Positions 8,687 through 8,811 of a stretch of 14,520 bases of DNA are shown in pieces (the stretch's first letter is position 1; each line of letters opens with the position of its first letter). The translations under genes and the position numbers were made by a program. The stretch is from a virus. Location: the IMG/VR virus record IMGVR_UViG_3300044732_002213; one strand, given 5' to 3'. The notes under the pieces were generated by a model. It did no database searches, had not been told where the DNA came from, and saw only the letters and a program-made list of their open reading frames with translations.

Positions 8687-8811
8687 GGGCCTCTATCATA
8701 ATTGGTGAATGAACTCGCCTCGGGGGATGTAGGTTACACAATGAGGTTCAACTCCTCAATCCCCAAACTATAAGCGAGCATATCTCCGTTCGAACCGGAG
8801 GGGGCCTACCA
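8687..8811 (+). tRNA. tRNA gene with a canonical cloverleaf interrupted by a 48-nt insertion in the anticodon loop. If the insertion sits at the canonical 37/38 position the anticodon is CGG (tRNA-Pro). CCA is encoded.
   Basis: Acceptor gggcctc (8687-8693) pairs with ggggcct (8801-8807) as 7 bp including 2 G-U pairs. U8-A9 present. D-arm tcat/atga (8696-8699/8709-8712) with D-loop aattggtga containing GG. Anticodon stem ctcgc (8714-8718) pairs with gcgag (8774-8778). Variable loop is 5 nt. T-arm ctccg-TTCGAAC-cggag (8784-8800). Discriminator A and CCA at 8809-8811. Excluding the insertion the length is 74 nt plus CCA. The insertion (8725-8772) folds into ggggat...atcccc, closing a T-arm-like hairpin tgagg-TTCAACT-cctca. 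Confidence 0.55.

Follow-up and report, generated by a model that had tools for sequence, protein, structure and literature searches.

The viral record IMGVR_UViG_3300044732_002213 of IMG/VR, whose full 14,520 nucleotides (nt) are here called the window, carries at 8687-8811 a tRNA gene that is complete, its CCA encoded, and that has 48 extra nt in the anticodon loop. The insert belongs to a structural family of inserts found in the tRNA genes of about 12 phage lineages, and the existence of this family is solid. Judged from sequence, the chances are about even that the insert is an intron removed by tRNA-processing enzymes and a ligase. The best junctions are probably 8721|8770 (intron 8722-8769) and the tRNA is probably Met or Ile2, with the intron between positions 34 and 35. 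The wider proposal, to which slightly less than even weight is given, is a new class of introns in bacteria and their viruses, independent of both self-splicing and bulge-helix-bulge cleavage: mimics of the tRNA top half that would be excised by RNase P and a 3′ endonuclease, with ligation of the exons, and that would spread with homing endonucleases and sometimes provide two tRNAs per gene.

The outer tRNA gene and its promoter are composed of the following parts.

8643..8671, plus strand: sigma-70-like promoter TTGACA-17-TAATAT, 10/12 matches (a consensus match only).
8687-8693/8801-8807, plus strand: acceptor stem of 7 pairs, 2 of them G.U; 5′ strand GGGCCTC.
8694-8695, plus strand: T8 A9.
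Plus strand: D-arm TCAT/ATGA with the loop AATTGGTGA.
8714-8718/8774-8778, plus strand: anticodon stem; 5′ strand CTCGC, 3′ strand GCGAG.
Plus strand: variable loop CATAT, then T-arm CTCCG-TTCGAAC-CGGAG.
A8808 and 8809-8811, plus strand: discriminator and CCA.

Every tRNA element described in an earlier note on this DNA was recovered by a direct coordinate check, and the cloverleaf is complete (acceptor stem of 7 base pairs (bp), D-arm with GG, anticodon stem of 5 bp, T-arm with TTCRA, discriminator, CCA). The consensus promoter described there is likewise present at 8643-8671. Its -10 element ends 16 nt upstream of the tRNA 5′ end; sigma-70-like sites number 7 in the region vs 4.7 expected. 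ARAGORN with the intron option, a check proposed in the earlier note, calls, at default stringency, only one gene in all 14.5 kb: 8687-8811, with an anticodon-loop intron of 48 nt; by default, with no intron option, it calls zero tRNAs in the window. The minimum free energy fold of the gene is the cloverleaf plus a GGGGAT/ATCCCC helix that closes TGAGG-TTCAACT-CCTCA, with a folding z-score of only -1.8. An assembly artefact is excluded because independent assemblies (ENA, JGI, Logan, NCBI) all carry exactly this sequence.

The insert is built like the upper half of a tRNA.

8722..8728, plus strand: acceptor-like stem, 5′ strand GGGGGAT; G8722 opposite A8765 (G.A), then 6 Watson-Crick pairs.
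8729..8741, plus strand: D-loop-like segment GTAGGTTACACAA, with GG inside.
8742..8758, plus strand: T-arm mimic TGAGG-TTCAACT-CCTCA.
8759..8765, plus strand: acceptor-like stem, 3′ strand ATCCCCA, contiguous with the T-stem.
8766..8769, plus strand: single-stranded tail AACT of 4 nt, in the place of discriminator and CCA.

The acceptor/T stack comprises 7 positions (G.A and 6 bp) and 5 bp, the T-loop TTCAACT corresponds to the consensus TTCRANY, and the strand between the T-loop and the end of the helix counts 12 nt, like tRNA positions 61-72. The tail of the window insert, AACT, is not a 3′ RCCA. Throughout the family GGTTCRAYTCC is unchanged. GG is present in the D-loop-like segment of 10/10 independent introns, vs 0.2% of composition-preserving shuffles (p ~0.002).

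Contig L007, which is from the same phage and extends upstream of the window, carries two more interrupted tRNAs (Leu-CAA and Leu-TAA, at 1165-1302 and 2204-2343) with a 51-nt insert each, a gene for a 224-amino-acid (aa) HNH-like protein between them and an uninterrupted tRNA-Gln adjoining. A divergent strain, L009, has an orthologue of the window gene with a 49-nt insert. At the place of the L007 genes, L009 and L014 carry a different cassette of uninterrupted tRNA-Leu(CAA) and tRNA-Gln with a 299-aa HNH gene. Further members in IMG/VR (L153, L072/L260, L132/L249, L241/L250, L263, L146 and L178) were obtained with patterns, then ARAGORN and a custom scanner; complete IMG/VR scans with GGTTCAACTCC and GGTTCAATTCC yielded the listed members. 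The structure scanner gave 1 match in shuffled sequence vs about 10 distinct real elements. A general double-T-loop pattern in IMG/VR gave, among the matches listed, mostly unrelated RNAs, and a scan of genome contigs with a second motif, GTTCRA, gave, among the 120 matches listed, ordinary tRNAs with a chance 6-mer behind them throughout. When the window and 12 members of the family were compared by blastn with 50,697 GenBank phage records, no isolate with these genes was found. Look-ups of the proteins flanking the window gene returned clonal copies and the one divergent strain L009, nothing else.

Covariation in the 12-pair acceptor/T stack was scored on 9 sequences: 98% of the cells are paired, 10/12 pairs are changed on both sides, and the covariation score is 1.06 (shuffles 0.24; partners slid ≤0.29); these pairing statistics are partly circular, since most members were found by scans that demand a T-loop or pairing. 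The comparisons of orthologues (window, L009, L153) are free of this circularity and are the cleanest evidence. Between window and L009 the exons are ~96% identical (3/77 differ) and the introns ~71%, the helices being kept by compensatory changes (hand count). Compensatory changes in the acceptor-like stem of the intron are seen against L153 as well. The view of the insert as a minihelix mimic in the earlier note is backed by the about 12 lineages, by the covariation and by a 3′ strand of 12 nt like that of real tRNAs. RCCA tails occur in 3 independent lineages (p=3e-4); the contigs with RCCA are L072/L260, L132, L241 and, with nested tRNAs, L208 and L216.

The proposed junctions divide the gene as follows.

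8687..8721, plus strand: 5′ exon; acceptor 5′ strand, T8 A9, D-arm, CTCGC, loop bases C32 U33 C34.
8722..8769, plus strand: predicted tRNA-mimic intron, 48 nt, by the junction rule from about 11 related introns.
8770..8811, plus strand: 3′ exon; A35 U36 A37 A38, GCGAG, CATAT, T-arm, acceptor 3′ strand, discriminator A, CCA.

By the junction rule the intron opens with the 5′ base of an acceptor-like stem that has 7 positions and in some cases a terminal G.A; its end lies beyond that stem by 4 nt (NCCA-like) or by 1 nt. The 3′ tail is 4 nt in 9 lineages and 1 nt in 2. Counted from the T-loop, the strand reaches the helix end after 12 nt in 9/13 members, after 11 nt in one member and after 13 nt in two others. 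The anticodon stem is separated from the intron helix by 11 unpaired bases in total (13 where there is a terminal G.A) or by 8; by the geometry of the rule these totals equal a 7-nt loop plus a tail of 4 nt or 1 nt. The loop segment of the 5′ exon varies (3 or 4 nt) and the tail length is fixed, therefore it is the intron helix, rather than the outer tRNA, from which both sites would be measured. Intron position 1 is G in 8/11 members and the splice sites are otherwise without a conserved base: across members the intron closes with T, G or A, and C, A or T precedes the 5′ site.

Splicing at 8721|8770 would give the window gene and its counterparts in L009 and L153 one and the same loop, CUCAUAA (CUC+AUAA), with the anticodon CAU. 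When these three genes are aligned, CTC ahead of the insert and ATAA behind it do not change. The bases that ARAGORN reads as anticodon are variable and covary with the 3′ strand of the outer helix in the insert (window GGGGAT/ATCCCC, L009 CGAAGAT/ATCTTCG, L153 CGAGGAT/GTCTTCG). After splicing in silico, 11/11 sequences are called as tRNAs by default ARAGORN (CAT x3, CAA, TAA x2, TTT, TTG, GTT x2, TCT), the window gene as tRNA(CAT), and the closest intronless matches of the spliced sequences bear the predicted anticodon. A vote of the 20 nearest intronless tRNAs, with the loop masked, gives Asn for L178 (12/20), Leu for L241 (13/20) and Arg for L146 (7/20), in agreement with the 7-position-stem junctions and in conflict with the His, Thr and Gly of ARAGORN. 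The same vote gives Gln for L132 under both readings, leans to Lys for L072 and does not decide L153, L263 or the window gene. One of the closest intronless matches is a bacterial tRNA-Lys(UUU), 84% identical to the outer tRNA of L216. Judged by the junction rule, ARAGORN assigns a wrong anticodon in at least 6 interrupted genes. The idea that 3′ exons always give NAU anticodons was dropped, being contradicted by the Leu-TAA and Gln cases.

These comparisons leave very little room for the junction of ARAGORN and of the earlier note, 8724|8773 (intron 8725-8772), by which the intron would follow the anticodon of a tRNA-Pro(CGG) and the enzyme would measure from the tRNA body. That reading has the ARAGORN output behind it, and the introns of eukaryotes and archaea do adjoin the anticodon. 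The near-identical body would, however, read CCG (Arg) in L009 and likewise in L153; the ARAGORN anticodon clashes with the tRNA body in L146, L178 and L241; and position 37 would be A, whereas it is usually G in bacterial Pro and Arg(CCG) tRNAs.

The anticodon CAU makes sense of a further gene of the window, because TilS acts on C34 of tRNA-Ile2(CAU).

4597..5199, plus strand: TilS N-terminal domain protein (tRNA lysidine-34 synthetase); TIGR02432 122.5 bits vs cutoff 93.6, Pfam PP-loop 1.7e-30.

The protein, of 200 aa, is an N-domain standing alone; the tRNA-binding domains found at the C-terminus of bacterial TilS are missing. The window tRNA has both of the acceptor pairs, C4-G69 and C5-G68, that are determinants for Escherichia coli TilS. 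The TilS gene fits an Ile2 identity, with elongator Met as the alternative; its link to this particular tRNA is one that we infer.

Whole or nearly whole tRNAs occur at the same site. In L208 (c1666-1815 of a 154-kb IMG/VR contig) an outer Lys-like tRNA carries a complete tRNA-Asn within its anticodon loop. The inner tRNA (GGGAAGT...ACTTCCC-G-CCA) scores 56.9 bits with Rfam, is 78% identical to the tRNA-Asn of crAss001, and with this ordinary tRNA-Asn gives the sole blastn match to the GenBank phages. In L216 (c675-836 of an 82-kb contig) an 85-nt tRNA-like insert with an ACCA end lies inside tRNA-Lys. Both inserts share the site and the junction rule of the mini-introns. A search for nested tRNAs gave 4 candidates among 1598 tRNAs vs 0-2 in shifted controls; L208 and L216 (the latter spotted by eye) are the only convincing cases, and L033 and L262 were rejected, their loops being 8-10 nt. 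An embedded tRNA is expected to be excised by normal tRNA end-processing. In the light of these nested tRNAs, the mini-introns look like reduced embedded tRNAs that have lost the anticodon arm and the D-stem.

Free-standing homing-endonuclease genes of the HNH type lie beside most of the interrupted tRNAs, that of the window included.

8050..8622, minus strand: free-standing HNH homing-endonuclease gene; PHROG 655 at 1e-42, Pfam HNH; divergent from the tRNA, 65 nt away.
350-1096: second HNH homing-endonuclease gene of the window.

At 7 loci (window, L007, L153, L132, L146, L072/L260, L178) an HNH gene is found 4-115 nt from the interrupted tRNA, and these genes belong to several PHROG families. 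An HNH-like open reading frame (ORF) lies within 150 nt of 3.6% of 1235 intronless tRNAs from the same IMG/VR loci (Fisher p=4e-6), a background rate that may be underestimated, the HNH set having been seeded from neighbours of intron-bearing tRNAs. When HNH homologues were taken as the start, 80 loci led only to the L153 contig, and most such HNH genes are not beside tRNAs. Positions 7797-8532 of the window, most of the HNH gene, are missing from L009. The two strains are 98-99.5% identical over 19-7796 and only 83% over 8533-9140 (~600 bp including the tRNA); an HNH insertion or deletion with such a flank is the usual sign of a homing-endonuclease recombination boundary. The intron may travel with the neighbouring HNH gene at the DNA level and, as in collaborative homing, may shield the tRNA gene from that nuclease.

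For the removal of the insert the following steps are proposed. RNase P would recognise the mimic and cut between C8721 and G8722, leaving a 3′-OH on the 5′ exon. A tRNA 3′-end endonuclease, of which the RNase Z/BN type is one candidate, would cut between T8769 and A8770 and leave a 5′-phosphate on the 3′ exon. The exon halves would be held by the acceptor, D and T interactions of the outer tRNA, and an Rnl-type RNA ligase would seal the nick in the anticodon loop, giving the predicted spliced junction ACUCGCCUC|AUAAGCGAG (8721|8770). TilS may then turn C34 into lysidine. RNase P and RNase Z are proposed because both measure via the acceptor/T stack and the elbow and because the ends of the intron correspond to tRNA ends, the 5′ end being position +1 of the acceptor-like stem and the 3′ end falling after a CCA-length tail or after the discriminator.

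Several observations weigh against this proposal. The tail in the window is AACU and not RCCA, so that RNase Z cutting after the discriminator would leave a loop of 10 nt, and we know of no enzyme that would explain the 3′ cut for 4-nt tails other than CCA. Genes for RNA ligase, RNase P and RNase Z were not seen in the ~45 kb recovered of the phage. In the two Leu introns the acceptor-like stem is shorter (G.A and 4 bp) and has bulges of 1-2 nt; L153 and L157 have 13-nt strands, L157 also a 24-nt leader ahead of the helix. No intronless allele of the window tRNA was found in a scanned metagenome collection that is without this phage (a control pattern that matches the window itself also gave 0), and the loop-masked nearest tRNAs do not agree clearly on an isotype for the body of the window tRNA. 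The covariance-model check suggested in the earlier note is divided in outcome: the interrupted window gene is missed by the Rfam tRNA model RF00005, both at the gathering threshold and at E≤10, whereas the model covers 7 interrupted relatives end to end over the full model with 40-59 bits. To these points are added the partial circularity of the pairing statistics and the seeding of the HNH set.

Among the readings listed in the earlier note, that of a novel small intron or processed element is favoured, and a decoy for anticodon nucleases was found to be without evidence. Splicing is preferred to deliberate disruption because in every case the two exon halves together restore a canonical loop of 7 nt in keeping with the tRNA body. 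The same fact bears on an unlikely alternative, in which the insert, or the 125-nt RNA as a whole, is the functional product and the outer tRNA serves as a scaffold for expression and processing of a minihelix RNA, either a decoy or competitor for tRNA-binding defence nucleases, RNase P or the CCA-adding enzyme, or an RNA partner of a vault homologue. tRNA scaffolds do stabilise inserted RNAs, the insert is a well-formed minihelix with a true RCCA end in three lineages, and the RNA lies 245-960 nt downstream of a homologue of the major vault protein (MVP). A mere scaffold, however, would not need a canonical 7-nt loop with a body-matching anticodon, rebuilt in every case. Other members of the family lie away from vault genes, and a role as vault RNA was rejected, the MVP relatives L001 and L002 being without the RNA. 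A functional insert is, moreover, compatible with splicing, since the excised intron could also be functional.

Decay of the genes is a quite improbable explanation: the tRNA genes would be inactivated, decaying pseudogenes, and the insert a scar or a small mobile element left by a homing endonuclease. It would account for the adjoining HNH genes, for the rarity of the element, for the position of the tRNA region as a divergent tract beside an HNH insertion or deletion, and for the failure of the Rfam tRNA model on the window gene. Decaying genes would not, however, be expected to differ as window and L009 do, with exons ~96% and introns ~71% identical and with compensated helices; promoter, CCA and all tRNA arms are intact, one geometry recurs in about 12 unrelated tRNAs, and TilS is kept. 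There is also a faint chance of a very small self-splicing or self-cleaving ribozyme of a new class, to which the conserved structure and the want of an identified dedicated splicing protein would point. Apart from the G at intron position 1 (8/11), however, no splice-site base is conserved; only the bases of the T-loop mimic are invariant, no ribozyme of Rfam is matched, and at the same site L208 carries a complete ordinary tRNA.

Compared with known systems, the inserts resemble group I tRNA introns (cyanobacterial tRNA-Leu(UAA), Patescibacteria) in interrupting the anticodon loop at variable positions with a 7-nt loop rebuilt, and in their frequent linkage to homing endonucleases. Group I introns are, however, at least ~200 nt long, self-splicing, with a P1-P9 catalytic core, a U before the 5′ site and a terminal G; the phage inserts are 44-51 nt, without a core and with a variable last base. 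The Rfam model Intron_gpI has no match in the window or in 10 related loci. The earlier note had set group I aside on length, and the 48 nt, the missing core, the absence of an Rfam match and the want of a conserved terminal G bear it out. Bulge-helix-bulge (BHB) introns of archaeal and eukaryal tRNAs, which EndA/Sen cuts out and whose exons RtcB or Trl1 joins, are likewise short, protein-dependent, in or near the anticodon loop and recognised by structure instead of sequence. They differ in having a 3-nt bulge, a 4-bp helix and a 3-nt bulge, whereas the two sites of the insert face each other across one internal loop. Inspection of the folds shows no helix between the sites, in line with the exclusion of BHB in the earlier note, and no EndA/Sen-type splicing endonuclease is, to our knowledge, known in bacteria or phages.

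Embedded tRNA folds also mark RNase P and RNase Z cuts in MALAT1 mascRNA, the tRNA-miRNA units of MHV68, plant mitochondrial t-elements and mitochondrial tRNA punctuation. There the flanks are separate products, whereas the phage flanks are tRNA halves that need ligation. Collaborative homing (cyanophage psbA intron/F-CphI; T4 mobE/I-TevIII) and T4 SegB are similar in the free-standing HNH or GIY-YIG gene beside an interrupted gene or in a tRNA cluster; collaborative homing also shows presence/absence polymorphism of the endonuclease and a divergent flank, but its introns are self-splicing group I introns. T4 Rnl1/Pnkp seals an anticodon-loop nick in an otherwise intact tRNA, as in the last step of the model; it repairs damage by host nucleases, however, and does not remove introns, and no ligase gene was found in the DNA recovered here. 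The tRNA-like domain of transfer-messenger RNA (tmRNA) has an acceptor stem, a T-arm and a D-loop analogue and no anticodon arm, but is formed from the two ends of a 350-nt RNA and is aminoacylated. The 3′ ends of tmRNAs share GAGGATGTAGGTT...GGGGTTCGAYTCC with the intron, a motif that was the search pattern and may be chance. GA(G/A)GATGTAGGTT...GGGGTTCGAYTCC occurs in the 3′ tRNA-like part of tmRNA in L270-L274 and L276, by chance or as a hint at origin. No description of tRNA-shaped mini-introns, or of tRNAs nested in anticodon loops, was found in the open-access literature, though an earlier description is possible; what that literature does describe are group I and BHB tRNA introns, permuted and split tRNAs, and phage homing endonucleases (SegB, mobE).

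Other RNAs with T-loop-like parts were seen in the scans. A recurrent element of ~110 nt with two T-loop-like motifs (...GAGCATTGACGAGCAAGGCATAAGTGCTGGTTCGATTCCAGAC...GGGCAGGGAAAAGGTCCGTTCGATTCGGACACCGGCAGTGCTCTC) is present in L020, L028, L035, L036, L038, L042, L058, L087, L095 and L138. tRNA-like genes with a type-II D-arm (AGTCAGGTGGCGGAAT...CCTGTCCTGACTAC or AGGTGGTGGCGGAATAGGTAGACGC...) have a long variable interior with a second T-arm, and fall outside the intron rule (L026, L043, L139, L229; also L027, L049, L067, L105, L112). Two T-arm-like hairpins ~30 nt apart, outside any recognisable tRNA (GGTTCRAYTCCGCTCGCTGGCCGAGATTNGGTAAGT...GGTTCRAATCC), occur in L060, L074, L106, L117, L125, L254, L256 and L261. 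The abiF RNA of Rfam (RF03085) scores above the gathering threshold inside phage tRNA arrays, in L178 at 1418-1454 and in L132 at 9992-10028.

The remaining genes recognised in the window are the following.

1958-3361, plus strand: homospermidine-synthase-like gene, 41% identical to hss of Ralstonia phage phiRSL1.
5240-7729, plus strand: MVP homologue of 829 aa; Pfam MVP_shoulder 3.7e-19, Vault_3; PDB vault chains E=6e-17.
10269-10736, minus strand: PTH2-type peptidyl-tRNA hydrolase-like gene, which adds to the translation-related cargo.
12170-14503, minus strand: tail-fibre-like gene with a C-terminal endosialidase-chaperone domain and many near-identical ~50-nt repeats.

The relatives of the vault homologue are confined to uncultured huge phages of 460-735 kb (37% identity) and two IMG/VR contigs (59%). 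In L001, downstream of the MVP homologue (~8560-9560), more than 12 copies of GGCTACGAAAA lie in both orientations around a small ORF and resemble iterons or protein-binding sites. The tail-fibre-like gene differs in length among strains (559 to 1460 aa called). No isolate phage similar to the window in DNA is present among the GenBank phage records.

If the insert is spliced, it represents a protein-dependent tRNA intron in bacteria or phages, where such introns are thought absent. The choice of its splice sites would fall to the enzymes by which all tRNAs are trimmed; this would open to introns a simple route into tRNA genes without the carriage of a ribozyme, and would explain why standard tRNA finders miss or mis-assign such genes. 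The finding bears on the old idea of the acceptor/T minihelix as an independent, older module of the tRNA, and offers a possible design for small RNAs embedded in tRNAs and released precisely.

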